Shown here: piece after piece, positions 7,921-54,792 of the stretch
Numbering within the stretch: position 1 is the first letter of the stretch
How the letters are laid out: the number at the start of each line of letters is the position of its first letter
From: a virus
IMG/VR virus record: IMGVR_UViG_3300029094_000045
DNA: 64,000 nucleotides
Direction: 5' to 3' (one strand)
Translations under genes and position numbers: made by a program
The notes under the pieces: generated by a model
Database searches by the model: none
Told to the model about the DNA's origin: nothing
The model's input: the letters and a program-made list of their open reading frames with translations, nothing else

Positions 7921-10479
7921 TTATTTTACTCTTGCTTCGTAAATTCTCGGTTCAGCTAAACTATATCGTTGACCAAGATATTCATACTCGCCGTTCGGAT
8001 CGTGAACTGGCAATTGCACGGGAACAGGTTTGATATTTTCAACTACGCCAGCACCAGCCATATGCCATAAGAACTTCTTGAATTTATTGGGATACTTCTC
8101 ATAGCAAAGCACCACAAGAATATTGGCCAGCTCTCTCACATCTGGACACACCAGCTTGCACTTGTTACGGTAGACATTGTAAATCGCCTGCCAGTTGGTT
8201 TCATAGGTCTTAGCTTCTTCTTTTGTAATTTTATCTTTGAGGTCATTCTTGTAGAGCTGCCAATTGTGGCATTTCTTTTCGAAGAGAAGCTGTTCCTTAC
8301 GGTAACGATTGAAATCAAGGAAGATAGCCTCGATCTGGTCAAATACCGACTGGTCATAGCCGATTTCTTTATCGAACATAATGTGCCAATCAAAGTTGCC
8401 AGCAGGCTCTTTATGCCAGCGAACACCACGTTCCCAACGTTCCAAACTCATACAAAGTAGACTCATATTGCTGTGCGCTTTGCTTAGATTGTGAAGCCGT
8501 GCATAATAGGGACCGTTGTATTTAAAGAAATATGGCATTCCACTTGCTTTTGCCCATTTACTGATCTGACGAGGAATAGGGTAGAGCACACCGGTTTTTG
8601 CGAAATCCACAGCTTTCCCGTTTGCTACAGAAAGAAGATCAATATAGCCCTCATATAACTGTTTTGTTTCCTCTGTACGTGCGACCCGGTTATGATATAC
8701 AGATGCCATGTTGCTGATCTCGCCAATCATACTTTTTAAACCACGAAGAGTACAAGCGAGCTTATTTTCAAGGTTGTCTATTTGGGCAAGACTAGTTACT
8801 TTGTCTTCAATATCAATAGTAACATATCCATCATCAGGGATAGTATTGATAATAATTGGCTCATTTGACAACAGCGTTAAGTCTCCATCATAATCGGCTC
8901 CAGACAAGCGTTGCGGGGTTATTGAAAACACGTTAATCATGCAGCAGTTGACGAGATGACTGCAATATTTTTGTGTCAATTCATTGTCAACACCTTTTAG
9001 CTTAACATGCTCTTGGTGACATATATGTGGGTTGCGTCCCAATGCGCGTTCACCTAAAATAACACCGCGTCTATCAAAGCTATAAAACTCATCGGCTTTA
9101 AGGCAACCCTTTATAGGAAGTTCCGCAATAGCCTCCATTAAAGCTATTTGATCTGGAAGCAGAAATTTAAATGTCGCGTTAAAAAATAGCTTTCCACACT
9201 TAAATCCATTGCGATATTTATCGAGGAGACTATGGAAATAATCTTTAACACTTGGCTCATGAACCATTTCTGGATTGCGCATAATAGCCGCAACATAATG
9301 ATTGAGTGGTTCAGTATTATCAGATAGTGCGCCAAGAAAACAGTATGTAAAAATCGGATCGCCACGTACGATCTTTTCATACCAATCTACTGATTTATCT
9401 GCTAGATGTTTAAATTCATCAAATGGAACATTCTGTAGGTCTTGGATAAGCTGGTAATTTCCTAAGCTAACTAAAACCTCTTTATCTGCTTGATAATTCC
9501 ATTTTGCAATACCTAATGCATGATCGTATTTCAAAGCAAGTTCTTTGTAGCGGTTCCAATCATTAACAGTTCCGTCTTGCTTAAAATATTTATATCCCTT
9601 GTACATGCTTTCACAAGCAATAAACATCGGCTCTGCATCACGAGTCACGGAATGTTTGATACCCCAAATGTCGGTGATTTCAGTAACACCACGCTCTTCG
9701 TAAAATGAAACATAATCCATTTCATTGAAAACACCTTTGAAATATGGCATACGAAACACCATGCTATTGATTCGTTCCGTTGTCCCAATTCGGTGCTCTA
9801 CTTCGCGCATCAAAGAAGGATGAGCAATACCGCATCCATCAAACATATTGATTTCAATGTCTGTTTCTTTTTTAGCGATTGCTTTTTGTTTCCAAGTGCG
9901 TTTTGCCCCGGTTTTCTGATCTACGAATTCGACTTCTTCGTCACGAACATATTTAATCTTTTGATTTGGAATAGTTGTAAAAGTATCTGGTACAACAATA
10001 ATTTTCGGAAACCATTCTCGAAGTGCGATACAATGACAACTTGAAAGCACAAGGCCGCGATAAGCATAATATTTACTAAGCACCGTCGGCTTGTCCTTGA
10101 AATCCAAATCCATACTGATTCGCTTATTAACTTCTGGCCAAATGTGAGATTCAACCATTGAGAAAATAAATTGACGAATCATAGAAGCGCTACGGTCGCC
10201 AAAAGAAAAATGATATTTACCGATTTTTGCGCCATGCTCAATCAAGTGACGGACTACTTTTGGCTTATTCTGAGCGCCAGTTGCATCGATAAATACAATA
10301 AAAGGATTGTAATCGTCATAGTTGTTTGACACAATTCTAATCTGACGAAGTAACATTGTATCAGACTGGAGCACTTGATATTGTGCATCGTTCGCAACTT
10401 CTGCCGGAATTTTGTAATTATATTTTATAAACAGACTTAAAGGATATTTGCGAACAGTGTAACTTTTAGGGCTGATCAA
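7921..10479 (-). CDS. large polymerase-like protein with an ADYDGD motif; candidate YonO-like single-subunit RNA polymerase
   Basis: 852-aa ORF containing SGADYDGDLTLL, which matches the NADFDGD catalytic loop of two-barrel RNA polymerases and YonO-type phage RNAPs (YonO is ~840 aa). No other polymerase-family motif (A, B or C) was recognised. The ORF is secure; the function is tentative. Confidence 0.35.
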   Translation of the reverse strand: MISPKSYTVRKYPLSLFIKYNYKIPAEVANDAQYQVLQSDTMLLRQIRIVSNNYDDYNPFIVFIDATGAQNKPKVVRHLIEHGAKIGKYHFSFGDRSASMIRQFIFSMVESHIWPEVNKRISMDLDFKDKPTVLSKYYAYRGLVLSSCHCIALREWFPKIIVVPDTFTTIPNQKIKYVRDEEVEFVDQKTGAKRTWKQKAIAKKETDIEINMFDGCGIAHPSLMREVEHRIGTTERINSMVFRMPYFKGVFNEMDYVSFYEERGVTEITDIWGIKHSVTRDAEPMFIACESMYKGYKYFKQDGTVNDWNRYKELALKYDHALGIAKWNYQADKEVLVSLGNYQLIQDLQNVPFDEFKHLADKSVDWYEKIVRGDPIFTYCFLGALSDNTEPLNHYVAAIMRNPEMVHEPSVKDYFHSLLDKYRNGFKCGKLFFNATFKFLLPDQIALMEAIAELPIKGCLKADEFYSFDRRGVILGERALGRNPHICHQEHVKLKGVDNELTQKYCSHLVNCCMINVFSITPQRLSGADYDGDLTLLSNEPIIINTIPDDGYVTIDIEDKVTSLAQIDNLENKLACTLRGLKSMIGEISNMASVYHNRVARTEETKQLYEGYIDLLSVANGKAVDFAKTGVLYPIPRQISKWAKASGMPYFFKYNGPYYARLHNLSKAHSNMSLLCMSLERWERGVRWHKEPAGNFDWHIMFDKEIGYDQSVFDQIEAIFLDFNRYRKEQLLFEKKCHNWQLYKNDLKDKITKEEAKTYETNWQAIYNVYRNKCKLVCPDVRELANILVVLCYEKYPNKFKKFLWHMAGAGVVENIKPVPVQLPVHDPNGEYEYLGQRYSLAEPRIYEARVK

Positions 10480-19853: not shown

Positions 19854-22800
19854 CCTCTTTTCTTTATGCCGTGCGATTAGCGGTCACGGGGAAGATAGTA
19901 ACCGCCCCAACGCGAAAGCGTCAAAAAAATGCAATTAAACACAGTAGGAAAGGAGTCCACCAAGCATGTCTATCATTGCAATCGAATCCGCTTATGACCT
20001 CGCAATCATGTTCGGAGACAAAGAACTTGCTGCCGTATATCGTGAAGCACTTGTCGAGGCCGGCGTTCACTACGAAAGCAAGGCGACGTGCTGGGCTGAC
20101 TGAAAGGAGACTTCAATATGAAATGGATTCTGACCGCCGGGGGTGGATACACTAGTTATCAGGCACAATGTCTGAGCCCGCTCATCTGGTTGCTCGTACT
20201 CGGTGCAATCGGTTACGGCCTGATGGAGTACCTCGAATCGAACCCCAAGACCGCGGCCAAGGTAAACCGCTGGATTGAAAGGAGACTGCATGTTCATTAC
20301 GATGATGATTGAAGCATTCGGTGACGATGAAATCGGTAACATCGATTTTGATGCTCAGGACATCAAGACGCATGAAACTGAAGAAACCGCTATCGAAGAG
20401 TTTCATCGCCTCGAAAAGAAGGCGATAGGTTCTGGCGGCAATGGTTTTTACTATCGTCCGATTAAAATTAAAGTGTAAAGGAGAACACGCAGTAGTATGA
20501 ATGAAATCGAAAATCGAATCGAAGAGTTGAATACAAAGCTCGACGAGGCCGTAGATGTCTATCTGTGCGTGAAAGCAGTATTCAATCTGTATCCTTGTAT
20601 CAGATCAGAACTGGGCCTGCGTCTTGCAGCAAATCGTGTCTCTGCCGCAATCAACCGAACCGAAGAAGCATTACGGCAACTCGAAAAGGAAAAAGCTGTC
20701 ACCGCGCCGCACTTCATTCTTCGTATTGAAACCCCCAATAAGATCCTCGAGTATGAGTACGTGGGCGAATACGATGCTTTCCTTGCTTATAAAAAGGCTT
20801 GCCTTGATATGAAGCTGAGCCGCAAATCTACTCGGGTTTCTCTGAGTCGCGGCGATACCGTGTTCAAGAGCGCTGACCTGATGTGACGCCGCAGAAAGGA
20901 GCTGCGAAGCATGAAGCGCATTCGTCCTGTCCCTGAAGACTCGCGAGTGATTGCTGTGTATCCTATTTGCAATTATGGCGGCGTCGAGATCCTTTCTGTC
21001 AAAGAAGATGTCGATGCTATCAGAGCCGAGGTTGCAATCAATACGGGTGACCGCCGCGAATACAAGGAATTCTACAAAATCAATCGAACAAAAACAACTG
21101 ACCGTGCATTCTTCAAAATGTACGGTCTTCTTTATTATCTGGATCAGTTCCAGCGAATCCGATAAGGGGGCGCAGCAGTGTCTGAAACCTTCTTGGCAGT
21201 GTGTGTCTTGGCTATCTTGGCAATGGGATACGCGCTGTATCTGATCGGCGTAGCAATCTATATGTTGGGTTGCTGTCGCAAATTTAACCGCACAGTCGAT
21301 GTGATTTCACATTGGCTTTTATCATTCTGGGAAGATTGTGTCTATGATGTTATCGTAGTCGCAGCAGCTTTGGTTGTGATTATAATTTCGTTATATGGCA
21401 CTTTCTAGTATACAACAAATCAAAGAAAAGAGGAAATTAAAATGCTGTTTTACCGTGTCAAAGAAGAAGCTGACAAGAAGCCCATGTTTATCAAGAAGCG
21501 CAACGGTATCGAATACTGGTCCATCTACGTCGGTGGCGAATTGTTTACAGCAAACGAGATGGCGCTGCGTCATCTGAATCCGGACTACATGTATCCGGTC
21601 GAAGTGAATCTGCGCAAGACCCAGTTCGTGTTCGGCGCTCGTATGCCGATGCCTGACGCAAATATCACCGCAATTCAGACGAAGAAGAACGAGGAGGGTA
21701 TTTCTAATGAGATGATTAAAAACATTGTCGATTTCGTTTCTGCTGCCGGCCGTCCTCAGTCTGAGCGTAAGCGCGGTGTCGTTCGCGTCTGCAAATCACA
21801 GTCTGGTTCAGTCGCCCACGGCTAACTCGGCGGCGGCACTCAACTCGGCGGGCAGATACATTCTCGGCGGCATTGTTAGCGCGGCGTACTACGAAAACGG
21901 TACGCGAGTTCTGAATATCGTCGATGAGAGTGGCGAAGTCTGGTGTGCAACTGTGCTGAGGACTGACCCGGCGGGTGACTAACCTAGCGAAAAACAACCT
22001 GACGGTTGGGAGGTGACTTAATGGCATCTGAATTTGTTCCTGAGTATGTCGTCGTCGTAGAGATCCCTTATCCGAGACGAATTCAAACCAAGACTACAAG
22101 TTTCGCTACGCTTGAAGAAGCGGCTCGTGAGTATTATGGCTATAAAAATTATATCCGCAATAACGCCGATGGCTATCATGCGTGGCTGAAAAAGAAGTCG
22201 GAAGACGGAAGCTACAAAGTGCTCGAAGAGTGCTCGTATGAGATCCTTCATCCGTCGGAGAAATAAATCTCAAGCGCAACAACCCAAACAAAGTATTCGC
22301 AGAGGGCTCCCCAGCAATAGTTGGGGAGTAATGCGGCTACGGAGACTGCAGAAATCCGTACTGGTCCCAAGCCCAGAACGCAGCAGCGTAAAGAAGCGGG
22401 CGCTCCGCAGCCATAATGAAATCCGATTCGATTTTGATGTGATGGCCACACTGATAAATCGATGACGAGAGTAAATTATGGGGCGTTTCTTGAATGAGCG
22501 AAACTAAACGAAAGGAGGGTTTATAGCTTGAATTGTAAACTTTGTTGCCCGCAATCGGTGGGCGTAGCAGCTGGTGCAAAGGTCGCGTCTTACTCCACTG
22601 AGCGAAATTTCATGGCATGGCGATACAAACTGTTCTGGCACCTAATTTAGATTGAGTTTTTTTGACTGATTTGGCAGTTGATGCTACAGGGGTAGTTGTC
22701 CCCGATATGTTTGATGGGATCATATAATAAAACCTATCTGGTGTCACCGACCATGTTCCTCGCCTGAAATATGGGAGACAAAAATAAGTGAAGGGCGGAT

Positions 22801-29203: not shown

Positions 29204-29281
29204 CCGGGTGTGGCGAAGCTGGTATCGCGCTAGTTTTGGGATCTAGAGATTTCGCCCGTTCGAATCGGGTCACTCGGACCA
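29204..29281 (+). tRNA. tRNA-Pro (anticodon TGG), CCA encoded
   Basis: Acceptor ccgggtg/cactcgg (7 bp including one GU); D stem gcga/tcgc; anticodon stem ctagt/tctag; loop tTTGGGa; T arm gcccg-TTCGAAT-cgggt; then A-CCA. Confidence 0.7.
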
Positions 29282-29423
29282 GTGTGTAGGGTTTCCGCAT
29301 TTTTCCTTACATAACAAACAACTTAGAAACGCCTCCTTTCATTGTGCTGCTTATCACAATCTTTCGATTTCTAAGTTGTCGTGGCTGAAAACGCCGAGCG
29401 GGTACGATAATCCCGTTTTATAT

Positions 29424-29464
29424 GAGGTCAATGATTACTTCTGGGTTTGATTCCCGGAGACCTC
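29424..29464 (+). other. tRNA mini-helix (acceptor stem plus T arm only)
   Basis: gaggtca-(10 nt)-ctggg-TTTGATT-cccgg-agacctc: 6 of 7 acceptor pairs and a 5-bp T stem. At 41 nt it is too short for a tRNA. It sits just 5' of the tmRNA-like gene. Confidence 0.3.
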
Positions 29465-29471
29465 TCTATAT

Positions 29472-29855
29472 GGGCCCGAAAGGTTTTCGACAGGGCTAAG
29501 AAAAAATTACAATTCGCAGGTCGGCCATCACCTTACGAGGCAAAAACAAATAAACGCTAACAACAACAGTTATCGTTGCGCGGCTTGATGCCGTGCCCAA
29601 AACAGCATCCTGATAGGCAGGTAAATGCTTGACGGTTCAAAGAATAAATCCCGGAACCCGATGTAAACGGTAAGAAACACTAGCGTTCTCGGACGTCAAA
29701 ACCGAGTGGTGGAGTGATGTAACAACCGTTACGTCCCTAGGTTTGCTGCGTCGGCGGCATGAATTCCTTTTCAAAATTCTAAATGCTGGCTATTGCGTAA
29801 GAAAATTGTAATTGAGTATTAGTTTTGGACGTGGGTTCGAATCCCACCGGGTCCA
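29472..29855 (+). ncRNA. ssrA: tmRNA (ssrA)-like gene, one-piece, with variant tag ANNNSYRCAA
   Basis: The 5' strand GGGCCCG (29472..29478) pairs perfectly with the 3' strand CGGGTCC (29848..29854) and includes a G3-U70 wobble, the AlaRS identity pair. The conserved 5' motif UUCGACAGGG matches E. coli GAUUCGACGGG. The 3' end GGACGUGGGUUCGAAUCCCACC matches E. coli GGACGCGGGUUCAACUCCCGCC. The tag frame GCU AAC AAC AAC AGU UAU CGU UGC GCG GCU UGA starts about 85 nt from the 5' end, as in E. coli, and encodes ANNNSYRCAA (E. coli ANDENYALAA). Total length ~384 nt. CCA is not encoded. Confidence 0.6.
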
Positions 29856-30264
29856 TAGCGGCGCAAGCCGCAAAGCTAGGTTCGATTCTGTCGGCGTGGA
29901 GTAGCACGTCGGTAGATGGGGTGGCGCAATTCCACCGTGGGTGATCATACTCCCCCTCTGACACATCCATAACGCTCTGACCGAAAATAATAACCATGAT
30001 GCAACGGGAGTAGCTACCCGCCACAGTGGATGTGCATGGCTCTATTATGTGTAGGCGAATATGGCACTGCCTGCGAAAGTGGCATAGATGCTCGGTGCCC
30101 AGAGCATCGGAGAGTGAATTTGAAAGGGCAGCCTTTGAGGATGGACACCATAAGAGACCTATTCGCTTATGTGTTGTATCCACTGACGCGACTGAGTATA
30201 GTGCAGACTTTGTAAGCCGCTTGCTTCTCGCTGATGTCGTTACATGGTTAAATCCTCCTCTCTG

Positions 30265-30342
30265 GGGCTAGTAGCTTAGTCTGGTTAAAGCCGGCAGCTC
30301 ATAACTGCTTGATCGGGGGTTCAAATCCCTCCTGGCCCACCA
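30265..30342 (+). tRNA. tRNA-Met (anticodon CAT), elongator-type, CCA encoded
   Basis: Acceptor gggctag/ctggccc; D stem gctt/aagc; anticodon stem ggcag/ctgct; loop cTCATAa; T arm ggggg-TTCAAAT-ccctc; A-CCA. The anticodon stem lacks the three G-C pairs of initiator tRNAs. Confidence 0.7.
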
Positions 30343-30636
30343 TTTTTAGTAACATTTTGAAAGAAGGTATGAATCATGGCAAATCCGAATATCAAAGAAA
30401 TCGTTGAATGGATGATTGAAAAAGCGAAAGATAGGGCTTCCGATAGCATCGCAGTCATTGATGAAGGAGAAATCGTTAAAGAGTTCGGAGTGGAGTCTGG
30501 ATGGCTTCAGAGCCATGGTCCAGAAATCTATCACGAATGCGATCGGCACTCAGAAGTTTTGGACTCTTTGATTTACACTGGAAATGATAGAGATTATTGG
30601 TCTATTCAGCTTACCATTAACAAGGAGTAAATCAAA

Positions 30637-31329
30637 ATGACTGATAAATATCTCAGTATCATCACGAACTTCGGGTGCCACTACAGCTGCCCTGAGTGTA
30701 TTGTCCGCAATAACAAGCTTAAGATGACACCGACAGTGGAGTATTCCTCTTACGCTCAGCTGTGGCATGTTCTTCATAACGAATGCAATGATTGCGATTG
30801 GGTGTCTGTTTCTGGTGGTGGCGATCCATTGTATCACTGGTGGGAACATCAGGCATGGTGGTTCGGATTCTTCGAGATGTGTTGGCGTTCTTTTCGCAAG
30901 ATTGAGCTGCATACCAGTTACTTTGATGTAGAAAATAATCACGAGATTATGTTGTTTCCGTTTGATAAATTCGACCGTGTTGTCTACCATGTTCACGGGC
31001 TGGATGATCTTGATGAGATTCGTCGTCGAGGCAATGAAATCGTCCGCGTAGTCTTTGTTGTTGATGACGATATGACTGAGGACGAAATCAATGGAATCGC
31101 TGATAATGTAGAAGCGTCAGACCAAATTGACGAGCTTTCGTTCCGGCAGCGTGTGGACGATAACTACGAGGCAACTTATCATCTGCATGATTTCCTGAAG
31201 GCCGGTCATCAGAAACGCTGGTGGTACATTGAACAGTGTGATTACAATATCTACTATCATAACGGTAAGCTGTTCACGAAGTATACCGATATCTTTGATT
31301 CTGAGGCGGTAAGTTATGAAAAAACATAA
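30637..31329 (+). CDS. radical SAM enzyme (QueE-like or RNR-activase-like)
   Basis: N-terminal NFGCHYSCPECI matches CxxxCxxC, and VSGGGDPLYHWW matches the GGE/GGD SAM-binding motif. GCxYSCxxC resembles B. subtilis QueE AGCDYSCSWC. 230 aa with no SPASM-type C-terminal cysteine cluster. Confidence 0.55.
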   Translation: MTDKYLSIITNFGCHYSCPECIVRNNKLKMTPTVEYSSYAQLWHVLHNECNDCDWVSVSGGGDPLYHWWEHQAWWFGFFEMCWRSFRKIELHTSYFDVENNHEIMLFPFDKFDRVVYHVHGLDDLDEIRRRGNEIVRVVFVVDDDMTEDEINGIADNVEASDQIDELSFRQRVDDNYEATYHLHDFLKAGHQKRWWYIEQCDYNIYYHNGKLFTKYTDIFDSEAVSYEKT

Positions 31330-31552
31330 AGATTTATTGCTGGCAGCTTGCGCATCGGCTGTTTCGTTTTTGAGTCTCAATGCCATTTTTGAGAAACTTC
31401 TACGGCACATCTCGCTTGTTCAAATGGCAACAGGAAGTATAAGTTCTCTTTACGGACGTGTCAGCGAGGCGGCTCTTTCGGTATCTGTAGCTCTGTCACT
31501 TGCGATTGGAGCTGTAGTATATATTCTGTTCAAAAATTAAAAGGAGGAACGA

Positions 31553-32464
31553 ATGAAGAATTTCAAAAAGATTTTCGTGGTTTCGTGTGCAATCGTGATG
31601 GCGCTGACCTTTACGGGGTGTACCAAGAAAGAGGTGTATACAATCGAACCTCATGAAACCGCATTTCTGATTTCACTCTCTGAGGGCGGGGAAAATCAGG
31701 CGTCTTTTGAGAGTGAGGCAATGCTCGCCGAGGCAAAGGTGGCAGCCAAGCAGGTATACATTACTTACTCGAAGCGGCATCTGTCACCGACTGACATCCT
31801 TGGTACTTGGGTTCCGGACAACATGTTGGTCATCGTTAATAGAACTCCTGTTACTCGTGAATGGTCCGAGGGCAAGGATAGTGGCACCAGCACTGTCAAT
31901 CAGTCCATCTCTGCCGAAAGCAAGGAGTCTATTGGCTTCTCCGTCGGCATGAACTGCTCTGCTCAGATCTACACTGAAAACGATGCAGTCAAGTTCCTGT
32001 ATTCCTACAACAACAAGCAGCTCTCCGAGATTATGGATACTGAAATCCGTGCGCGTGTAGAAGCTGACTTTGTTGAAAAGTGCGCCAAGTACACCATGAA
32101 TGAGATCCTTGAGAAGAAGGCCGAGATCATGGAGTATGTCCGCAAGGATGTGACTGAGTATTTTGCAGAGCGCGGTATCACGATTACGGTCCTTGGTATG
32201 AAGGATGGCATTGAGTACGACGATGCGTCTGTTCAGGCTGCTATTAACAAGTCCTTTGTGGCCGAGCGCAATGACGAGGCGCAGGAGATTGAGAATCAGA
32301 CCAAGATTTCCAAGGCGAACGCAGAAGCCGAGGCGAATAAAATCATCTCTGAGTCTCTAACTGACCGGCTGATTCAGCAGCAGATGTATGAAAAGTGGGA
32401 CGGTAAGCTTCCGACTTATGTTGGCGGCGATACCAGCGTCCCTGTACTGAACGATATGAAGTAA
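31553..32464 (+). CDS. SPFH (band-7/HflC-like) domain lipoprotein
   Basis: Signal peptide with lipobox ...ALTFTGC; the C-terminal half AEAEANKIISESLTDRLIQQQMYEKWDGKLPTYV is a typical SPFH/band-7 Ala/Glu-rich helix. Confidence 0.5.
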   Translation: MKNFKKIFVVSCAIVMALTFTGCTKKEVYTIEPHETAFLISLSEGGENQASFESEAMLAEAKVAAKQVYITYSKRHLSPTDILGTWVPDNMLVIVNRTPVTREWSEGKDSGTSTVNQSISAESKESIGFSVGMNCSAQIYTENDAVKFLYSYNNKQLSEIMDTEIRARVEADFVEKCAKYTMNEILEKKAEIMEYVRKDVTEYFAERGITITVLGMKDGIEYDDASVQAAINKSFVAERNDEAQEIENQTKISKANAEAEANKIISESLTDRLIQQQMYEKWDGKLPTYVGGDTSVPVLNDMK

Positions 32465-32504
32465 CCTGTGTAAGCAGTGGCGGCTCGGAAAGACGAGCAT
32501 ATAT

Positions 32505-32587
32505 GTTTCGGTGCTGGAATCGGCAGACAGGGGAGTCTCAAAAACTTCTGCGCAAGCATGTGGGTTCAAGTCCCATCCGAAACACCA
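32505..32587 (+). tRNA. tRNA-Leu (anticodon CAA), type II, CCA encoded
   Basis: Acceptor gtttcgg/ccgaaac; anticodon stem ggagt/acttc; loop cTCAAAa; long variable arm; T arm tggg-TTCAAGT-ccca; A-CCA. Confidence 0.65.
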
Positions 32588-32717
32588 GGGCGGACGTTTC
32601 ACCGCCTCTTTTCATACATCTCCTTTCCCTCACAGATGCTTAGTGGTTCATGGGTTCCAGACATGAATCACCGTGACTGAACAAGTCGTAGCAGGTACGC
32701 AATCCTGCTCTTGATAA

Positions 32718-32802
32718 GCCATAGTGGTGGAACTGACATACACTTCCGTTTTAGGGGCGGACGCCGCAAGGATTGAGGGTTTGAATCCCTCCTATGGCAC
32801 CA
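32718..32802 (+). tRNA. tRNA-Leu (anticodon TAG, reads CUA/CUG), type II, CCA encoded
   Basis: Acceptor gccatag/ctatggc; anticodon stem tccgt/gcgga; loop tTTAGGg; 13-nt variable arm; T arm gaggg-TTTGAAT-ccctc; A-CCA. The anticodon is 5'-UAG-3', not the amber-suppressor CUA. Confidence 0.6.
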
Positions 32803-32958
32803 ATCTCGTATGGGTAGGATCTTTAGCGGTCAGATCCGGCCGCGCCTGTGCGAGATACCACCCCGAAAGGGGAAGTTATCCATGATGTCCTTTCTACGCC
32901 CGCTATTCTCGGCTCGCTCGAAAGAGTGCAGCGTGCCTTTGTAAGCCGAGTATCTTAT

Positions 32959-33031
32959 GCAGCCGTAGTGTTAGTGGTTAGCACACCTGCTTCCCAAGCA
33001 GAGAGGGCGAGTTCGAATCTCGTTGGCTGCT
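32959..33031 (+). tRNA. tRNA-Gly (anticodon CCC)
   Basis: Acceptor gcagccg/tggctgc; D stem gtgt/gcac; anticodon stem cctgc/gcaga; loop tTCCCAa; T arm gcgag-TTCGAAT-ctcgt; CCA not encoded. Confidence 0.6.
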
Positions 33032-33207
33032 CTAGAGCTCCTGTGTTTGCGTTGCCCAGCTGTTAGTAATTAGTGTGTGTTGTTATGGTTCATAAAACCT
33101 CCTTTCCGCTTGGCGATATAGGAACTCATTTACCTCTTTTCTTCCTTATTATTCCCGGCTCCATGGCGCATGCTGTGGCAATAAGACGTAGTAAGCCGGG
33201 TTCTTAT

Positions 33208-33279
33208 GCAGCGGTCGTATAACGGCTAGTACATCGTCCTTCCAAGTCGATGGCGTGGGTTCGACTCCCATTCGCTGCT
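33208..33279 (+). tRNA. tRNA-Gly (anticodon TCC)
   Basis: Acceptor gcagcgg/tcgctgc; D stem gtat/gtac; loop cTTCCAa; T arm gtggg-TTCGACT-cccat. Its upstream flank (gtaagccgRg...cttatgcagc) is duplicated with the CCC gene, so this is a tandem duplication that has diverged at the anticodon. Confidence 0.6.
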
Positions 33280-33455
33280 CTACAGGTACTACACCTGAAG
33301 GGGTATGGCAAGATATTTAGCGGGTATACACGTTAAATAAGTCTACTGTATGAGATAAAAGATAGAAACCATAGGAGTGGCTTCCTAATGGGACAGGATG
33401 TGTGGGTTGGCTGCCCTGAGATGAGTCTGATAACCTGTATAAAACAGACTACCGT

Positions 33456-33501
33456 GGGATAACTCGGTGTTGAAGATTGAGTTCAATTCTCAATCATCCC
33501 A
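33456..33501 (+). other. second tRNA mini-helix (acceptor-like stem plus 7-bp T hairpin)
   Basis: gggataa-(12 nt)-gattgag-TTCAATT-ctcaatc-atccc-a; no D or anticodon arms. Confidence 0.25.
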
Positions 33502-33748
33502 ATTCCACCGCGAGGTGGAAGACAGCTTTGCCCATTAGGTCTTTAACAAAATGGGGAATAGGTACATGGTGGTAAAAGGACGATCAAATAATAGCCATGA
33601 CTTCTTTGCTTGACGCCATAAGACTCGGATAGAATGGTCCGATGGGAAGTTGTCCTGCTTGGAGAATCGGGAGTGCAGGTGTACCTAATTTTATATGTAT
33701 ACAAATTTATTTCATATATTAGGAGATGCTGAATTATGGGAGGTTAAT

Positions 33749-34222
33749 ATGATAATTAAAGAAACACCAGAATATAACGTATACCAAAACAAGGATGGTC
33801 GAACAAGAGTTTACATAAAGTCAACACAAAAAATTATGTCATACCCTAAATTTATCATGGAACAAAAACTTGGCAGGTCTCTATTGGCAGATGAAGAGGT
33901 TCATCATATTGACGAGGATTTCACAAATAATGATCCTAGCAATTTGATTGTTTTAGCAAAAGATAAACATCTTGCTATTCATTTGAATGAAAAAACAAAA
34001 TATTACGATAAAATGATGACGTGTCCTATATGCGGAAAAAATTTTTTGTGGACAGCAAAATCACAATCTACATTTTACAGGACAAAAAATCGTAGAATGA
34101 AAAGAAATAAAACCAATACTGTAAATGACAGTCCGTTTTGTTCAAGAGAATGCGCTGGACACTATTCTCAAGAGCAAAAGATTCGCTACCATGGCGAAAA
34201 TGGCAGTACGCTTCGGTCTTAA
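33749..34222 (+). CDS. HNH homing endonuclease with a C-terminal zinc ribbon; its 3' end overlaps the tRNA-Leu(TAA) gene
   Basis: EEVHHIDEDFTNNDPSNLIVLAKDKHLAIH is an HNH motif, followed by CPICGKN...CSRECAGH. Start assigned to the ATG at 33749 after GGAGGT. The TAA stop lies inside the tRNA anticodon loop. Confidence 0.55.
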   Translation: MIIKETPEYNVYQNKDGRTRVYIKSTQKIMSYPKFIMEQKLGRSLLADEEVHHIDEDFTNNDPSNLIVLAKDKHLAIHLNEKTKYYDKMMTCPICGKNFLWTAKSQSTFYRTKNRRMKRNKTNTVNDSPFCSRECAGHYSQEQKIRYHGENGSTLRS

Positions 34223-34270
34223 AAACCGATGTCGAGAGGCGTGCGGGTTCAAGTCCCGCTGGTAGCACCA
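34185..34270 (+). tRNA. tRNA-Leu (anticodon TAA), type II, CCA encoded
   Basis: Acceptor gctacca/tggtagc; D stem gcg/cgc with a 12-nt loop; anticodon stem tcggt/accga; loop cTTAAAa; 13-nt variable arm; T arm gcggg-TTCAAGT-cccgc; A-CCA. Confidence 0.65.
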
Positions 34271-40505: not shown

Positions 40506-41738
40506 ATGTACATCACATATTGGAATCCGCCTAATACACGGCAGATTACTTTTGATGAAATCATCGCAGGCGTACAGAATGTTGAAGCGCTGCATTATGG
40601 CGGCAGCACCACCTCGACGATTACGGTGTGTCGTAATGACCTTACTCCGCGCCTGCAGAAAATCACCAATATCCCAGATATGATCGCAAAACTTACGGAG
40701 TTTAATCAGAAATATGCAGGACTCGAAGCGTGCGACCTCGCTGCTCATTATGAACATTTTGAGATTCCTAAGAAGTCCGGCGGCTGGCGTCCTATCGATG
40801 CTCCGGATAAGGAATTGTCTGATGCTCTGGTTGAGCTGCGCGAATTACTTCACAGCTTCATGATCGCAGACTATCACACAAATGCTTTTGCTTATATTCC
40901 GAATCGTAGTTTTATCGACGCAGTCCGCAAACATCAGGCTGGTCACATTAAAACGAAAAAGAATGAAGAAACCGGAATACAGACGACAGTGACTTTTGAA
41001 AATCACTGGGCAGTGAAGTTTGACTTGCATGGATTCTTTCCGAGCACAACGCCGGATTTTCTTCTTGGGATGTTGAGCATTATTTATCCGTTCGCTCTGA
41101 TTATGAAGGATGAACGGGGGCACGAACAGCTTGCCAACGCCTTAAAACTTTGTTTCCTCCACGGTGGTTTGCCGCAGGGGACGCCTATCAGTCCATGGCT
41201 TACCAATGTTATGATGATTCCATTTGATCATCTTATCACGCGCAAGCTGTGTTACGGCTATAAGGCAAAAGACGGTATCGAACGTGAATTTACCTATACC
41301 CGTTACGCTGACGATATGATGTTTAGTTGTTATCACAGTTTTGACCCGATGGAGATCCAGCAAATCGTCATCGATGGTTTGAACTTCATCCATGCACCAT
41401 TTACTTTAAATGAAGCAAAAACTCATTACGGCAACCGCCATTCCAGTAAAAACTGGTGCCTTGGTTTGATGTGGAACAAGGATAACCAGATCACTGTTGG
41501 ATGGCGAAATCTGAAGATGTTTCGGTCTGCCATGAAAAACTACATTGATGCGAAAAAGCGTGGCGAAACGTGGGAGCTTGAAGATCTTCAGTCGTTTATG
41601 GGCAAGCTTAATTACTATCATATGGTCGAACCCGATGTAATTGATGATTTGGTTCATCGTTACAATGAAAAATTTGGTGTTGATGTGATGGCTATGCTCA
41701 AAGACGATCTTCGTCTTAAAGATGGCGAAGCCGCGTAA
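40506..41738 (+). CDS. reverse transcriptase of retron/group-II type
   Basis: RT motifs in order: IPKKSGGWRPIDAP (1/2), FDLHGFFPS (A), GLPQGTPISPWLTNVMM (B'), YTRYADDMMFS (C, YxDD), then an LG region. QGxxxSP plus RYADD is retron/group II-like rather than DGR-like (IGxxxSQ). Confidence 0.7.
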   Translation: MYITYWNPPNTRQITFDEIIAGVQNVEALHYGGSTTSTITVCRNDLTPRLQKITNIPDMIAKLTEFNQKYAGLEACDLAAHYEHFEIPKKSGGWRPIDAPDKELSDALVELRELLHSFMIADYHTNAFAYIPNRSFIDAVRKHQAGHIKTKKNEETGIQTTVTFENHWAVKFDLHGFFPSTTPDFLLGMLSIIYPFALIMKDERGHEQLANALKLCFLHGGLPQGTPISPWLTNVMMIPFDHLITRKLCYGYKAKDGIEREFTYTRYADDMMFSCYHSFDPMEIQQIVIDGLNFIHAPFTLNEAKTHYGNRHSSKNWCLGLMWNKDNQITVGWRNLKMFRSAMKNYIDAKKRGETWELEDLQSFMGKLNYYHMVEPDVIDDLVHRYNEKFGVDVMAMLKDDLRLKDGEAA

Positions 41739-43460: not shown

Positions 43461-44285
43461 ATGGCCGAAGCTGTTAAAAGGAAAAAATATGAAAAGTTGG
43501 TCCAATTCCCCAAAGTCTCTGATAGCACTCACTTCACCATGAGTGAAGAAGAACTTCAGAAGATGATTCGGGATATTGCGGCTGCGGCTCAGAAGTCTAG
43601 AAAGCGTAAACCTAAACCTACATATAGTCTCTATACGAAGGATGGACGCAGAAAGCCCACGCCAGCCGATCCGATTCGTTCGAAAGAAGATTTCTGGAAA
43701 CTGGCTGATTATTTGGGTTCTACTGGAGATCCTAAATTCCAGCTGCGGAATAAGACGATTTTTATTTTTGGCTGTAGTATCGGCGTTCGCTGCGGCGATT
43801 TGTTGAACCTAAAAACAGGAGATGTTTATGAGGCGAATGGTTCGGTGAAAGAACATCTCGAACTAATGGAAGAAAAAACGCGCAAAATCAACGTTTGTAA
43901 AATTCCCAAAATGGCCGTGGATGTTCTGGAACAGTATCGTGATGAACAGAAATTCTCTATCGATCAGCAGAATTATCTATTCCGCAGCCGTAAAAATGGT
44001 TCTCTAAATGTGCGCAGTTTCTATCACATCTTGAAGAACGCAGGCAAAGTATGCGGGCTGGATATTGACCTGTCTACTCATACGATGCGTAAAACTTATG
44101 CAATGGCAGCTCTTCAAACAGCAGATGGAACAGAGGCGTCTGGCGATACGTTGGAGTTGCTTCAGGTGAAATTCAAACACAGTGATAAGCGCGTTACTAT
44201 GCGATACATTAAGGCGGATCAGGATAAAATCGATAAGATGTCCAATCGCGTTTCAGAATGGTTTGAGGATGGAGGAACTAAATGA
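43461..44285 (+). CDS. tyrosine recombinase (integrase-family catalytic domain only), embedded in the paralog array
   Basis: Box I GVRCGDLLNLK; box II LSTHTMRKTYA (HxxR); catalytic Tyr in KRVTMRYIK. 274 aa with no N-terminal arm-binding domain. Its stop overlaps the start of paralog 3. Confidence 0.6.
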   Translation: MAEAVKRKKYEKLVQFPKVSDSTHFTMSEEELQKMIRDIAAAAQKSRKRKPKPTYSLYTKDGRRKPTPADPIRSKEDFWKLADYLGSTGDPKFQLRNKTIFIFGCSIGVRCGDLLNLKTGDVYEANGSVKEHLELMEEKTRKINVCKIPKMAVDVLEQYRDEQKFSIDQQNYLFRSRKNGSLNVRSFYHILKNAGKVCGLDIDLSTHTMRKTYAMAALQTADGTEASGDTLELLQVKFKHSDKRVTMRYIKADQDKIDKMSNRVSEWFEDGGTK

Positions 44286-49621: not shown

Positions 49622-50725
49622 ATGAAGATTGTTGAAAGTTCTGGCCGTTTACATCTGTATGGCGATGACATGAAAGCATATGACCAGATTCCGGCTGGTA
49701 CATACGATATCTGCTTTTCCAAGATGACCGGTTTTTATCTGGTTCGTCGTCCTGACATGGCGGTTGATGAAAAGGTGTATGGTGTCGCCGGGGAAAAGGC
49801 TGCGAAGGTAATGAGCACGTTCAAGGTGTTTACCCGAAATCTTGGTGTAATCCTCAGCGGTGATAAGGGCATCGGTAAGTCTATGACTGCTAAAATGATT
49901 GCTAAGGCCGCTATTGATGAGGGCTATCCTGTTATTTTGGTGAGTGAATACGTCCCCGGTATTGCAAGTTTTATTGAGTCAATCACACAGGAAGTTATGA
50001 TTCTGTTTGACGAGTTTGATAAAACATTCCGTAAAACAGATGACGATACGCCACAGGATACTATGCTTAGTCTATTCGACGGCACTACCGCAGGCAAGAA
50101 ACTGTTTGTGGTCACGTGTAATGAACTGCGGAGCCTGAATGACTATCTGGTAAATCGTCCCGGTCGTTTTCATTATCACTTCAGATTTGATTATCCAAAG
50201 GCGGACGAAATTCGCACTTATCTACAAGACAAGCTCGACCCCAAGTATTATGGAGAAATCGAATCTGTTATTCAGTTTTCTTCTCGTGTCGCTCTGAATT
50301 ATGATTGCCTGCGTTCTATTGCATTTGAGTTGAACCTTGGCACTGCATTTAAGGATGCGATTTTGGATTTGAACATCGTCAATCTGGACGATTTGAGTTA
50401 CAAGATTACCGCAATAACTGAAAGCGGTAAAAGGGGCTCTACTACTGGCAGTTACGATCTCTTTAGCGAGGGCCAAGATTATTCCGATTATTTTACTCCG
50501 ATCGTCGGAAATGACAGTTTTAAAATTCGATTCAATACTAACGATATTGAGTTTGATCCCAAGACAAATAGGTGTCTGATCATGGGTGAAAATTTGGATG
50601 TTATAAATCCTTACGACAAGGATACTGAGTGGGAAAAGGAAGACTATGCAGCGTTCGAAAAGGAAACTATCAAATGTATTGTGTTTGAACGCCGCAGTGA
50701 CCGCAGTCTGCATTACGCAGTCTAA
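49622..50725 (+). CDS. AAA+ family ATPase
   Basis: Walker A GDKGIGKSMTAKMIA and Walker B VMILFDEFDK. Confidence 0.5.
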   Translation: MKIVESSGRLHLYGDDMKAYDQIPAGTYDICFSKMTGFYLVRRPDMAVDEKVYGVAGEKAAKVMSTFKVFTRNLGVILSGDKGIGKSMTAKMIAKAAIDEGYPVILVSEYVPGIASFIESITQEVMILFDEFDKTFRKTDDDTPQDTMLSLFDGTTAGKKLFVVTCNELRSLNDYLVNRPGRFHYHFRFDYPKADEIRTYLQDKLDPKYYGEIESVIQFSSRVALNYDCLRSIAFELNLGTAFKDAILDLNIVNLDDLSYKITAITESGKRGSTTGSYDLFSEGQDYSDYFTPIVGNDSFKIRFNTNDIEFDPKTNRCLIMGENLDVINPYDKDTEWEKEDYAAFEKETIKCIVFERRSDRSLHYAV

Positions 50726-51564: not shown

Positions 51565-51824
51565 CATGAAGCATGCAAAAGGTGAAATCCTTAGTGCATA
51601 TCAGCGCTTAACGAAAAGTATCAAATATGGAGATGCATACTGGTCTGAAAAAGCAATGATAAGTGATGCTCTGAGTGATTACTTCAATCGGATAGAGAGC
51701 AAGAAAGTCGTAATCGATCCAAAATATAAAAGCTACAGATGTCCAAAGTGCAATACAGCATTAATTGGTCAATATGATCACTACTGCGGACAATGTGGTC
51801 AGAAATTGGACTGGAGGATTAAAA

Positions 51825-53303
51825 ATGATCAATATTAACCCAATGCTGCTGTGTGACTTCTACAAGACAACTCACAGTAAGCAGTTTCCGGCCGGCACCA
51901 CCAAGCTGGTCAGTTACTTTACTCCTCGTATGAGCCGTCTGGATGGCGTGGATGAAGTCGTCGTGTTCGGCATTCAGGCATTCTGCAAGGATTATCTGGT
52001 GCAGTATTTCAATGACAACTTCTTCGACGAACCAAAGTGTATTGTAATTCCTCAGTATAAGCGATATCTGGATGCGACCATTGGCAAGGATGCTTACGAT
52101 CTGAGCAAGATTGCAGCACTACATGATCTGGGATATCTTCCTGTTGAAATCAAGGCTCTGCCAGAAGGTACTCGTTGCCCGATCCATGTGCCGTTCCTTG
52201 AGATGAGCAATACGCACCCTGATTTCGCATGGGTTCCGCAGTTCCTCGAATCTTTTACGAGTTCTGAGCTGTGGCATCCGATGATTTCTGCAACGGTCGG
52301 AACTCTGTATCGCGATATCGTGGACAAGTATTACGATGAAACCGTTGAAGAGGGTGTGCCCCATGCTCGTGCTCTGGGTGATTTCAGCTTCCGCGGTCAG
52401 GAGTGTATGCAGTCGGCAGTTAAGTCAAGCGCCGGTTGGTGTCTGAGTTTTCTGAATACGGCTACTGTACCTGCGATTCCGTATCTGGAAGAAATGTATC
52501 GCTGCAATTGTGAAGAAGAGCCTGTTGCGTTTGGCGCTGTTAGCACAGAGCATAGTGTGATGTGTTCTAACTTCGCAGTCGATGGCGATGAGATCACTTT
52601 CATCCGCCGGGCGCTGACTGAGCTGTATCCGAATATGAGTTTCAGTATGGTGTCTGATTCCTATGATTACTGGAATCTGGTCGATAATATTCTGCCGCAG
52701 CTCAAGGATGAAATCATGGCGCATAATGGCACGCTGCTGATTCGTGGCGACTCTGGTGACCCGGTCGAAATCGTTACGCAGACCGTCTATCATCTGTGGG
52801 ACATCTTCGGCGGCACAGTCAATAGCAAGGGTTATAAGGTGCTCGACCCTCATGTAAAGGCTCTGTATGGAGACTCTATTACTGTGCAGCGCTGTGAAAA
52901 GATTTATGCCGAACTCAAAGCACACGGTTTCGCCTGCAACAATGTAAGTCTCGGCGTTGGTTCCTTCTCCATGCAGTGTATTGAACAGAATGGGCAGCTG
53001 AAACCGTTCACCCGTGATACGTTCGGCATGGCAGTCAAGGCAACTTATGGCGTGGTTAACGGCAAGGAGATCCAGATCTTCAAAGACCCAAAGACCGATA
53101 CCGATCACTTCAAGAAAAGTCTGAAGGGTATGTGCTATGTCACCAAGGATGATTCTGGGAAGCTGATTTGCACAGATGGTCTGATGAATCATGCCGCGCA
53201 TTCGGATGGGAATCTTCTGCAGACCGTATTCCGTAATGGCGCGATGATCAAGGAGTACAGTCTGAAGGAAGTCCGCGACCGACTGTGGAAAGGGAAGTTT
53301 TAA
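51825..53303 (+). CDS. nadV: nicotinamide phosphoribosyltransferase (Nampt/NadV) family enzyme; candidate NadV or nicotinamide-ADPR transferase (Namat)
   Basis: Family signatures LLCDFYKTTHSKQFP, PVEIKALPEG, GDFSFRGQE, VSDSYDYWN, IRGDSGDPVE, KGYKVLDPHVKALYGDSIT match the Nampt blocks NTDSYK.TH, IKAVPEG, GYRG, VSDSYD, IRPDSG, KGYK..P...GDG. Start taken at the ATG at 51825 after GGAGG. Confidence 0.7.
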   Translation: MININPMLLCDFYKTTHSKQFPAGTTKLVSYFTPRMSRLDGVDEVVVFGIQAFCKDYLVQYFNDNFFDEPKCIVIPQYKRYLDATIGKDAYDLSKIAALHDLGYLPVEIKALPEGTRCPIHVPFLEMSNTHPDFAWVPQFLESFTSSELWHPMISATVGTLYRDIVDKYYDETVEEGVPHARALGDFSFRGQECMQSAVKSSAGWCLSFLNTATVPAIPYLEEMYRCNCEEEPVAFGAVSTEHSVMCSNFAVDGDEITFIRRALTELYPNMSFSMVSDSYDYWNLVDNILPQLKDEIMAHNGTLLIRGDSGDPVEIVTQTVYHLWDIFGGTVNSKGYKVLDPHVKALYGDSITVQRCEKIYAELKAHGFACNNVSLGVGSFSMQCIEQNGQLKPFTRDTFGMAVKATYGVVNGKEIQIFKDPKTDTDHFKKSLKGMCYVTKDDSGKLICTDGLMNHAAHSDGNLLQTVFRNGAMIKEYSLKEVRDRLWKGKF

Positions 53304-53537
53304 TGATTCTCGAAATTAGTGCCGAAACGGCGTGTGAAATAATCAGCCATCCACTGGAATCGTCTTCTGATAGATTTTGGCTGCAAGAAAATGACCGTTA
53401 TGTTGGAATCGATAATTCTGAGCATTCGGCATGGGTCGAAGACTTCTCCACAAAAGAAGAATGCCTTAATTGGCTCGAAGAGAATCAAAAAGATGACAAG
53501 TAACCAACAGAGATGCTGTCGAATCGAAGGTGAAAAC

Positions 53538-54011
53538 ATGGCAGTTGTTATCAAAGAAGGCAACGTATTTGATTCTGACGCAGACATTATCTGTCATCAG
53601 GTGAATTGTCAGGGCGTCATGGGGTCAGGCGTTGCTAAAGAAGTTCGCGAGCGTTATCCAGAAGTATATGCTCAGTATAAGTATCTATGTGATATAAATA
53701 AGGGTTATCCTGCCGGATTACTGGGAAAGGCACAAATCGTTTCGACTGACAACGTATTTTCTCGATATATCGCCAATTGTTTTGGCCAGGATAAATACGG
53801 TTATGATGGCGCTCAGTATACTTCAGTTGGTGCATTGATGGAAGCCCTGATTTATGTTGCAGAGCAGGCAAGGCAGTTTAACTGGAAGGTCGCTATGCCG
53901 TATAAAATCGGATGTGTCCGTGGTGGGGCTGATTGGGATACGGTTAAGAAAATAATCGATGTCACGTTTCAGGGTGTCGATGTAGAACTGTGGAAACTGG
54001 AGGGTAAATAA
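53538..54011 (+). CDS. macro domain protein (ADP-ribose binding/processing)
   Basis: VIKEGNVFDSDADIICHQVNCQGVMGSGVAKEV matches the macro-domain N-terminal Gly-rich ADP-ribose pocket (Gx(I/V)xxxxxDAIVNAAN...GGGVA pattern). Confidence 0.55.
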   Translation: MAVVIKEGNVFDSDADIICHQVNCQGVMGSGVAKEVRERYPEVYAQYKYLCDINKGYPAGLLGKAQIVSTDNVFSRYIANCFGQDKYGYDGAQYTSVGALMEALIYVAEQARQFNWKVAMPYKIGCVRGGADWDTVKKIIDVTFQGVDVELWKLEGK

Positions 54012-54012
54012 T

Positions 54013-54771: not shown

Positions 54772-54792
54772 GGCTGATTAAGGAGAATCATA

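Follow-up and report, generated by a model that had tools for sequence, protein, structure and literature searches.

A 64,000-nucleotide (nt) stretch of viral DNA, the IMG/VR virus record IMGVR_UViG_3300029094_000045 (referred to here as the window, meaning that whole stretch), harbours a gene for a transfer-messenger RNA (tmRNA, ssrA) within a group of seven same-strand transfer RNA (tRNA) genes at positions 29204-34270. An original prediction, made from the letters of this DNA, had placed a complete tmRNA gene at 29472-29855 in a phage tRNA island, with a tag ending in -RCAA, and had named ARAGORN and the Rfam covariance model RF00023 as ways to check it. Both detect the tmRNA as independent calls. 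ARAGORN returned the same coordinates on the plus strand, with the tag ANNNSYRCAA* encoded by gene positions 85-117, and RF00023 matched 29472-29858 along the entire model (positions 1-374 of 374) with 93.6 bits (gathering score 47) and E = 3.5e-35, a value that puts the match far beyond chance. The gene and its parts are as follows.

29472..29855, plus strand: one-piece tmRNA (ssrA), detected by ARAGORN and RF00023; the mature RNA is predicted to end at position 29855, with the discriminator A
29472..29491, plus strand: 5′ half of the tRNA-like domain, consisting of the acceptor strand GGGCCCG (29472-29478) and the D-loop analogue AAAGGUUUUCGAC; RF00023 posterior near 1
29556..29588, plus strand: tag frame GCU AAC AAC AAC AGU UAU CGU UGC GCG GCU UGA, encoding ANNNSYRCAA*; ARAGORN and RF00023
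29578..29596, plus strand: helix 5, GCGCGGC/GCCGUGC, with the stop codon in its loop; RNAalifold columns 108-114/120-126, all kept, and a helix of RF00023
29831..29855, plus strand: T arm GUGGG-UUCGAAU-CCCAC, 3′ acceptor strand CGGGUCC and discriminator A; RF00023 and RNAalifold

The acceptor stem described in the original prediction, GGGCCCG paired with CGGGUCC and including the G3-U70 pair, is present and is followed by the discriminator A. RNAalifold recovers it from 12 aligned sequences as columns 1-7/377-383, with all seven pairs, G3-U included, kept throughout the 12, and stem and discriminator are invariant in 11 of the 12 aligned copies. One copy, L014, carries the mismatch A2-C71 in this stem. 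The conserved 5′ tmRNA motif that had been pointed out is the D-loop analogue GGUUUUCGAC, which aligned to RF00023 with high posterior, and GGUUUUCGACAGGG and GGACGUGGGUUCGAAUCCCACC match conserved tmRNA blocks in the same alignment. All five pairs of the T stem are kept, the T loop is canonical and the T arm, which the original prediction had likened to that of E. coli, agrees with the Rfam consensus. The window tmRNA does not encode a 3′ CCA (GGGUCCA is followed by UAG). Helix 2 comprises columns 20-28/350-358 and 37-48/324-341 in RNAalifold and, among the 12 copies, shows compensatory pairs at 28/350 (A-U to U-A) and 37/341 (U-A to C-G) as well as two wobble changes.

The mRNA-like part begins with an A-rich stretch that ends in UAAAC and leads into the resume codon GCU, such that U(-5), A(-4) and C(-1) precede GCU, a context kept in every copy. 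The tag frame, which the original prediction had located ~85 nt from the 5′ end, is the very frame and tag read by ARAGORN, and its codons pair one to one with the RF00023 tag consensus GCaAACgAcaAaaAcUA, which we take to be the Escherichia coli ANDENYALAA frame; the other two frames, read from the sequence, yield CGC UAA or a tag that begins with a residue other than Ala. The UGA stop lies inside the helix 5 loop (GCGCGGC-UUGAU-GCCGUGC). As TGA terminates 14 of the 38 long open reading frames (ORFs) of the window, UGA is a genuine stop here, and an alternative genetic code with UGA readthrough was rejected on the same ground. Taken together, these features fully support, at the level of sequence, the identification of a one-piece tmRNA, every testable defining feature other than the pseudoknots being present. 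With bacterial one-piece tmRNAs (E. coli, Bacillus subtilis; RF00023) the phage RNA shares the G3-U70 acceptor, the D-loop analogue GGnUUCGAC, a long helix 2, the discriminator A, the A-rich stretch with UA ahead of GCN, a 10-codon tag equal in length and spacing to the RF00023 tag consensus, the stop in the helix 5 loop and the T arm. It is unlike them in being phage-encoded, in having no encoded CCA in the window copy, in a tag that ends in YRCAA rather than YALAA and in a region of pseudoknots 2 to 4 (PK2-PK4) that is too divergent for confident alignment.

A presence/absence cassette in a gut phage family

The tmRNA gene is well inside the window, with ~29 kb to its left and ~34 kb to its right and phage-family ORFs on both sides. 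Its sequence context is that of a genuine phage genome, not of a prophage junction with a host gene. Unannotated 'Bacteriophage sp.' contigs from human faeces are 93-97% identical to the window, and related IMG/VR and ENA contigs measure 143-151 kb. Its large terminase (1089-2639, minus strand) is 39% identical to yonF of SPbeta, with all remaining matches in Bacillota phages, and an 852-residue protein (7921-10479, minus strand) belongs to the RdRP family PF05183, the family of the SPbeta single-subunit RNA polymerase YonO; these two proteins place the phage among the SPbeta-like viruses. The host is probably a human-gut member of the Bacillota. PhoH/YlaK, Bro-N, an SPFH protein, a reverse transcriptase and an integrase (tyrosine recombinase) are also encoded in the window. 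Exact copies of some window proteins are found on contigs of 240-548 kb (this recombinase on contigs up to 548 kb), which suggests integrated prophages and a temperate lifestyle.

Within this genome the tmRNA occupies a slot in a block of RNA elements bounded by two tRNA genes, all on the plus strand.

29204..29281, plus strand: tRNA-Pro (UGG), which bounds the RNA block upstream, with CCA encoded (ARAGORN)
29381..29423, plus strand: two-hairpin element ending in UUUUAUAU, directly 5′ of the slot in all family members; supported by compensatory CGGG/CCCG versus CAGG/CCUG and by folding
29424..29465, plus strand: 42-nt tRNA-like minihelix with a 6-bp acceptor stem, a 10-nt linker, a 6-bp T stem and a 7-nt loop; supported by covariation and folding
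29466-29471, plus strand: spacer CTATAT after the minihelix
29858..29871, plus strand: hairpin GCGGC-GCAA-GCCGC, which always accompanies the tmRNA cassette (states B and C below)
29874..30264, plus strand: candidate conserved non-coding structured RNA of ~390 nt, from the slot to tRNA-Met; supported by covariation
30265..30342, plus strand: tRNA-Met (CAU), which bounds the RNA block downstream, with CCA encoded (ARAGORN)

Relatives were collected through the neighbouring 230-residue protein (30637-31329), which is encoded on 263 stretches, the best 80 of which were fetched, and tmRNA copies were located in IMG/VR with exact and gapped DNA patterns, the gapped pattern adding one contig. The tmRNA is present on 14 IMG/VR contigs (two of them cut off by contig ends), as compared with the 263 stretches that encode the neighbouring protein, and on at least 13 viral contigs (up to 150 kb) it sits in the identical slot between tRNA-Pro and tRNA-Met. 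Most of the best 80 relatives are without the tmRNA and retain the tRNA-Pro/tRNA-Met pair, a result on which ARAGORN and an nhmmer profile agree. BLAST homology to tmRNA-less genomes ends near 29424-29433 and restarts exactly at 29874. The slot, preceded by the conserved two-hairpin element with its terminal UUAUAU, was found in these states.

State A, about 52 loci: the slot holds nothing but a 42-nt element
State B, 7 contigs besides the window: a diverged 42-nt element, then CTATAT, then a tmRNA without CCA
State C, 6 contigs: a tmRNA with encoded CCA and no 42-nt element

The tmRNA is an accessory presence/absence cassette at a fixed slot within one phage family. The hairpin GCGGC-GCAA-GCCGC is not an intrinsic terminator, since no U-run follows it, and neither a promoter nor an intrinsic terminator is evident beside the tmRNA gene, which would make co-transcription with the tRNAs and tRNA-type processing the likeliest route to the mature RNA. 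No gene is called in the public assemblies between the Bro-N gene and the small ORF past tRNA-Met.

Copies of the tmRNA on 13 IMG/VR contigs share 92-99% identity. When state B genomes are set against those of state C, the tmRNA is 92% identical, as compared with 67-80% for the downstream spacer and 74-87% for the adjacent protein gene, and within state B the corresponding values are 98-99%, 84-96% and 80-88%, so that the tmRNA is the best-conserved local segment where it is present. Changes in the 33-nt tag frame amount to three synonymous ones (AAC to AAU, CGU to CGC, GCU to GCC) and one replacement (Asn3 to Tyr); the tag occurs in two variants, ANNNSYRCAA and ANYNSYRCAA, with SYRCAA invariant. 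This local peak of sequence conservation points to function.

As to the origin of the gene, a pattern for its tRNA-like domain matched none of 185,579 genomes of bacteria and archaea (one genome per species), and 38 other tmRNAs on IMG/VR contigs are alike in the tRNA-like domain only; together, these results define a distinct, diverged tmRNA lineage. In INPHARED, no DNA similarity to the tmRNA portion was detected except in MT835676.1, a 97% identical, unannotated phage contig from human faeces, and among the annotated or isolated phages of that collection none has a tmRNA like it. On these comparisons, recent capture from a host, a fragment at a junction and an assembly error are all rejected as its origin.

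The end of the tag

The original prediction had gone beyond identification: it took the -RCAA end, with -CAA in place of -LAA, for a departure from the canonical tag, Arg included, and proposed an altered degron and, with it, a different fate for tagged proteins. In a screen of random C-terminal pentapeptides in E. coli, the consensus was [L/F/Y/W]-[L/A/R]-L-A-A, with Ala-Ala in 91% of the top 100 tags and Leu as the most favoured residue at -3 (PMC10862746). The phage tag end YRCAA fits four of the five positions of this consensus, which is that of E. coli, the host of the phage being probably a member of the Bacillota: Tyr at -5 and Arg at -4 both lie within it and the terminal Ala-Ala-COOH is present, and at -3 the tag has Cys instead of Leu. 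We compared this end with those of the 38 other tmRNAs on viral (IMG/VR) contigs that share the tRNA-like-domain motif, which are LAA (25/38), AAA (4/38), VAA (3/38), MAA (2/38) and QAA, IAA, AVA and VNA (1/38 each). Ala-Ala closes 36 of these 38 tags, Arg stands at -4 in 11 (e.g. ...VRLAA) and Cys stands at -3 in none. Arg, being favoured at -4 in the E. coli consensus and present in 11 of the 38 viral-contig tags, is thus no departure. What holds up of the replacement of -LAA by -CAA is the Cys at -3, rare among tags and kept throughout the clade, but the rest of the degron is canonical.

A search for a Cys-Ala-Ala-stop tag at the right spacing from a tmRNA-type T arm returned CAA-ended tags in 16 of the 185,579 species genomes, a count that is a lower bound, as the pattern covers part of tmRNA diversity; in IMG/VR, matches to the pattern were confined to the present phage family. 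Fourteen of the 16 are gut species represented by metagenome-assembled genomes (MAGs) labelled Bacilli, Mollicutes or Clostridia, with the tag ANKPVMFRAPAMMACAA or near variants of it (...MMACAA, ...MMAACAA), and the other two are Desulfovibrio sp. with the tag ANNDYEYACAA. The bacterial contigs concerned are L095-L100, L102-L110 and L112 (GTDB), and three of the MAGs bear implausible submitter names, such as Bacteroides uniformis. The Desulfovibrio tag has both the Cys-Ala-Ala end and the ANN...Y.CAA layout in common with the phage tag. Unlike the phage tag with its Arg, both bacterial tag types (ANKPVMFRAPAMMACAA and ANNDYEYACAA) have Ala at -4, and the Bacilli tags are 17-18 residues long. 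CAA-tag bacteria were rejected as the source of the phage tmRNA, the identity being ~54% overall with the T arm alone matching.

The called tags of these two bacterial lineages suggest that tags ending in CAA can function normally, a single ssrA copy being assumed there. An altered degron with a changed fate of tagged proteins accordingly has little support, as YRCAA fits four of five consensus positions and CAA ends occur in bacteria. For a Bacillota phage, E. coli SspB is no relevant yardstick, and since this phage is SPbeta-like with a host probably among the Bacillota, E. coli SspB and ClpX would be the wrong yardstick for its tag. Because the aromatic residue at -5 and the terminal Ala-Ala are kept, the tag most probably continues to act as a signal for ClpXP-type degradation, though its strength may differ; a quantitative difference in degron strength is possible from its sequence. 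That a compensated frameshift (GCG UUG to CGU UGC) turned AL into RC works arithmetically, but no intermediates support it.

Neighbouring RNAs and genes

The 42-nt minihelix upstream of the tmRNA has a sister version that is the sole occupant of the slot in about 52 related loci (e.g. L016 5438-5479, L018 5006-5038). The two versions are equal in architecture, with the loop UU(C/U)GAUU. In the alignment 99.3% of cells are paired, as compared with 36-58% in slid controls, 9 of 12 pairs are changed on both sides between the versions, and the minimum-free-energy fold is the same structure, so that the element is a real structured one. It had no match to the Rfam tmRNA, tRNA or any other family at E <= 10, and few of its copies have G3-U70. 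The element resembles a tRNA minihelix or an ssrA reduced to the tRNA-like domain (TLD-only), and it could be a TLD-like or a processing element. Its origin as a recent internal deletion of the tmRNA is not supported, the stems being dissimilar in sequence. In phage DS6A, too, where relatives have a tmRNA, the RNA is cut down to acceptor stem and T arm, and TLD-only molecules inhibit tmRNA in vitro (PMC4131195). The likeness to DS6A is one of description, its record being without such an annotation, and most minihelix copies differ from it in having no G3-U70. The minihelix also accounts for a match of the permuted two-piece tmRNA model RF04321 to 29403-29588 (plus strand), which at 35.7 bits is below the gathering score of 47 and was rejected as an artefact in which the minihelix T arm and the 5′ half of the one-piece tmRNA are read together; the two explain the match in full.

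On the other side of the slot lies the ~390-nt RNA, which is present with or without the tmRNA and is 65-96% identical across the family. An alignment of the window and 12 relatives (A3) yields a fold of 75 pairs in 16 helices, 25 of the pairs being changed on both sides, as compared with 1-6 in slid controls. No gene is called in this region in the public assemblies and no Rfam family matches it at E <= 10, and the modelled fold makes it a candidate for a new large structured RNA of SPbeta-like gut phages. The tRNA-Met that follows is ordinary in the window (78 nt). In many relatives (e.g. L016 5868-5959, L021 5616-5706) the post-slot tRNA is either a tRNA-Met(CAU) of 91-92 nt, with an insertion of ~17 nt in the variable region (Rfam tRNA 60 bits), or a tRNA of 91 nt that ARAGORN reads as Ile(UAU).

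Farther along, the tRNA island contains an HNH endonuclease gene (33695-34222, plus strand) that overlaps the start of tRNA-Leu(UAA) at 34185 and may encode a homing endonuclease that aids cassette shuffling. The plus strand of the window also encodes a reverse transcriptase (RVT_1, 40506-41738), a tyrosine recombinase (43461-44285), a STAND/AAA NTPase (49622-50725), a cluster of NAMPT, Macro-domain, NAD synthase and isochorismatase-type nicotinamidase genes (51765-55365) and an RlaP RNA-repair gene (60990-61877). Standing beside the tRNA/tmRNA island, the NAD+-salvage cluster and RlaP plausibly have counter-defence functions. A type-P5 twister ribozyme (RF02684) with intact conserved core blocks was detected at 22298-22376 (plus strand; 50.7 bits, gathering score 37.6), in a 5-kb stretch without any ORF of at least 150 residues.

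Interpretation and alternatives

Phage-encoded tmRNAs are already well documented, and what is new here is an undescribed lineage with a rare tag variant. About 2.3% of sequenced phages have ssrA (PMC9004378), and one survey counted phage-encoded tmRNAs in 402 of 18,146 phage genomes. Like the tmRNAs of mycobacteriophages Bxz1 and Wildcat, Bacillus phage G, huge phages and Melnitz, the present gene is a complete ssrA on a large phage; such genes usually stand beside tRNAs. As opposed to the two-piece tmRNA of the marine myophage Melnitz it is one-piece, and it stands apart from these phage tmRNAs in its SPbeta-like human-gut lineage, its Cys-containing tag end and its presence/absence cassette. 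The Wildcat tmRNA is very highly expressed (PMC7474061). Phage ssrA genes are without a demonstrated function, the hypotheses being that they sustain translation or manipulate proteolysis (PMC4131195, PMC7162821, PMC9004378, PMC7474061).

We consider it likely that the tmRNA of the window works, as a one-piece RNA encoded by the phage, and that it forms an accessory cassette of the tRNA/small-RNA island in an SPbeta-like genome of ~150 kb, that of a probably temperate phage whose host is a human-gut member of the Bacillota. This reading builds on what is observed at the locus, namely the gene, its conserved parts, its location in a phage, its accessory distribution and its conservation; the later steps, from transcription and processing through alanylation and use of SmpB from the host to what becomes of tagged proteins, would run as follows. 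The tmRNA would be transcribed along with the neighbouring tRNAs and then cut by RNase P at the 5′ end and by RNase Z at the 3′ end. The CCA, not encoded in the window, would be supplied to the state B tmRNA by the CCA-adding enzyme of the host. Host alanyl-tRNA synthetase (AlaRS) would then charge it with alanine by way of G3-U70 and A73, and the alanylated tmRNA, together with host SmpB and EF-Tu, would enter the A sites of stalled ribosomes that are without mRNA. Translation would resume at GCU (29556), add ANNNSYRCAA and stop at UGA, whereupon the ribosome would be freed and the tagged product marked for ClpXP-type degradation. For the phage, the gain would be additional capacity to rescue ribosomes, in infected cells or lysogens, at times when cleaved mRNAs or damaged tRNAs give rise to many non-stop complexes, and truncated mRNAs might stem from the infection itself or from host defences that target RNA. 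Such a benefit fits the tRNAs, RNA-repair and NAD+-salvage genes of the same genome and agrees with published ideas on other phage tmRNAs (PMC7162821, PMC9004378) and with the strong expression of the Wildcat tmRNA (PMC7474061).

Several observations weigh against a functional tmRNA. The PK2-PK4 region reached a posterior of only 0.2-0.4 in the RF00023 alignment, and canonical PK2-PK4 were not recovered between helix 5 and helix 2 by RNAalifold or a stem search; a nested fold of this region has several helices with wobble-type support only, and a candidate knot (217-221/231-235 with 222-227/244-249) is broken by U225C in sister copies. In E. coli, the PK2-PK4 knots are replaceable. Pseudoknot 1 is a plausible H-type knot of 4 + 5 bp by inspection (S1 47-50/59-62, AGGU/ACCU; S2 53-58/66-70), without covariation: RNAalifold detects S2, a search for uninterrupted stems of 4 bp returned a single stem in the region, and the sole pairing variation is G-C to G-U. 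Moreover, since most relatives are without it, the tmRNA is dispensable, and its high conservation could be due in part to recent phage-phage exchange and not to selection. No SmpB-like ORF was found in the 64-kb window or the fetched loci (tblastn with E. coli SmpB as query, best E = 0.11), so that the tmRNA of this ~150-kb genome would depend for its function on compatibility with host SmpB. Finally, Cys at -3 departs from the Leu favoured in the E. coli screen, in which small polar side chains were depleted at this position (PMC10862746).

This last point bears on the altered-degron reading, namely that -RCAA escapes or redirects host proteolysis of ssrA-tagged proteins, which would be spared, degraded more slowly or routed to another protease or adaptor. 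We know of no measurement of a CAA degron variant so far. The absence of Cys at -3 from all 38 other viral-contig tags, the restriction of the CAA pattern in IMG/VR to this phage family, its occurrence in just 16 of 185,579 species genomes (a lower bound), the invariance of RCAA in the clade while the codons vary synonymously and the preference for Leu at -3 in the E. coli screen (PMC10862746) all speak in its favour. Nevertheless, we hold it to be rather unlikely, as Tyr, Arg and Ala-Ala retain four of the five consensus positions, called tags of two bacterial lineages end in CAA and the comparison is with an E. coli-type tag that may not be that of the host. A broader proposal, in which the one slot is a switchable trans-translation module holding minihelix, tmRNA or both, in which -YRCAA gives a differing protein fate and in which the ~390-nt RNA is part of the same system, strikes us as more doubtful still; within it, the minihelix would possibly mimic the tRNA-like domain of the tmRNA and engage SmpB, RNase P or the CCA-adding enzyme.

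The tag would be secondary if the phage RNA were a competitor or decoy that titrates host SmpB, AlaRS or EF-Tu, or displaces host tmRNA, and thereby shuts down or hijacks trans-translation. Near-minimal tRNA-like-domain molecules inhibit tmRNA, perhaps through titration of SmpB, and phage DS6A has a gene of this kind (PMC4131195); in addition, an acceptor/T-arm minihelix fills the same slot in most family genomes, and the window is without a phage SmpB. A pure decoy would not need a coding part, however, and here the mRNA-like domain, the resume context, helix 5 and the 10-codon frame are conserved with mostly synonymous change, and the minihelix is not close in sequence to the tRNA-like domain of the tmRNA, most of its copies being without G3-U70; we therefore regard this explanation as very improbable. 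The chance that there is no working phage gene at all, the sequence being a host ssrA brought in by mis-assembly or a prophage junction, or a decaying relic, appears close to negligible. It is true that ssrA is a frequent integration site of temperate phages, which carry pieces of its 3′ part (PMC9004378), that copy L014 has its acceptor mismatch and that some window proteins recur on the 240-548 kb contigs that suggest integrated copies. Yet the gene is complete, lies in the window interior between phage-family ORFs, recurs on at least 13 independent viral contigs in a constant slot between tRNA-Pro and tRNA-Met, is without a counterpart in the 185,579 species genomes and is the most conserved segment locally.

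A functional phage tmRNA at this locus is a confirmation and not a surprise, and its interest lies in what the family offers. Related ~150-kb gut phages that differ by the presence of a tmRNA at a defined slot constitute a natural experiment on what such an RNA contributes to infection or lysogeny, a contribution that the defined slot would make directly measurable once the host is found. The tag, in turn, represents with its Cys at -3 an uncommon natural form of a much-used degron, and its strength would be a data point for ssrA-tag engineering and would reveal whether phages tune the fate of rescued proteins.

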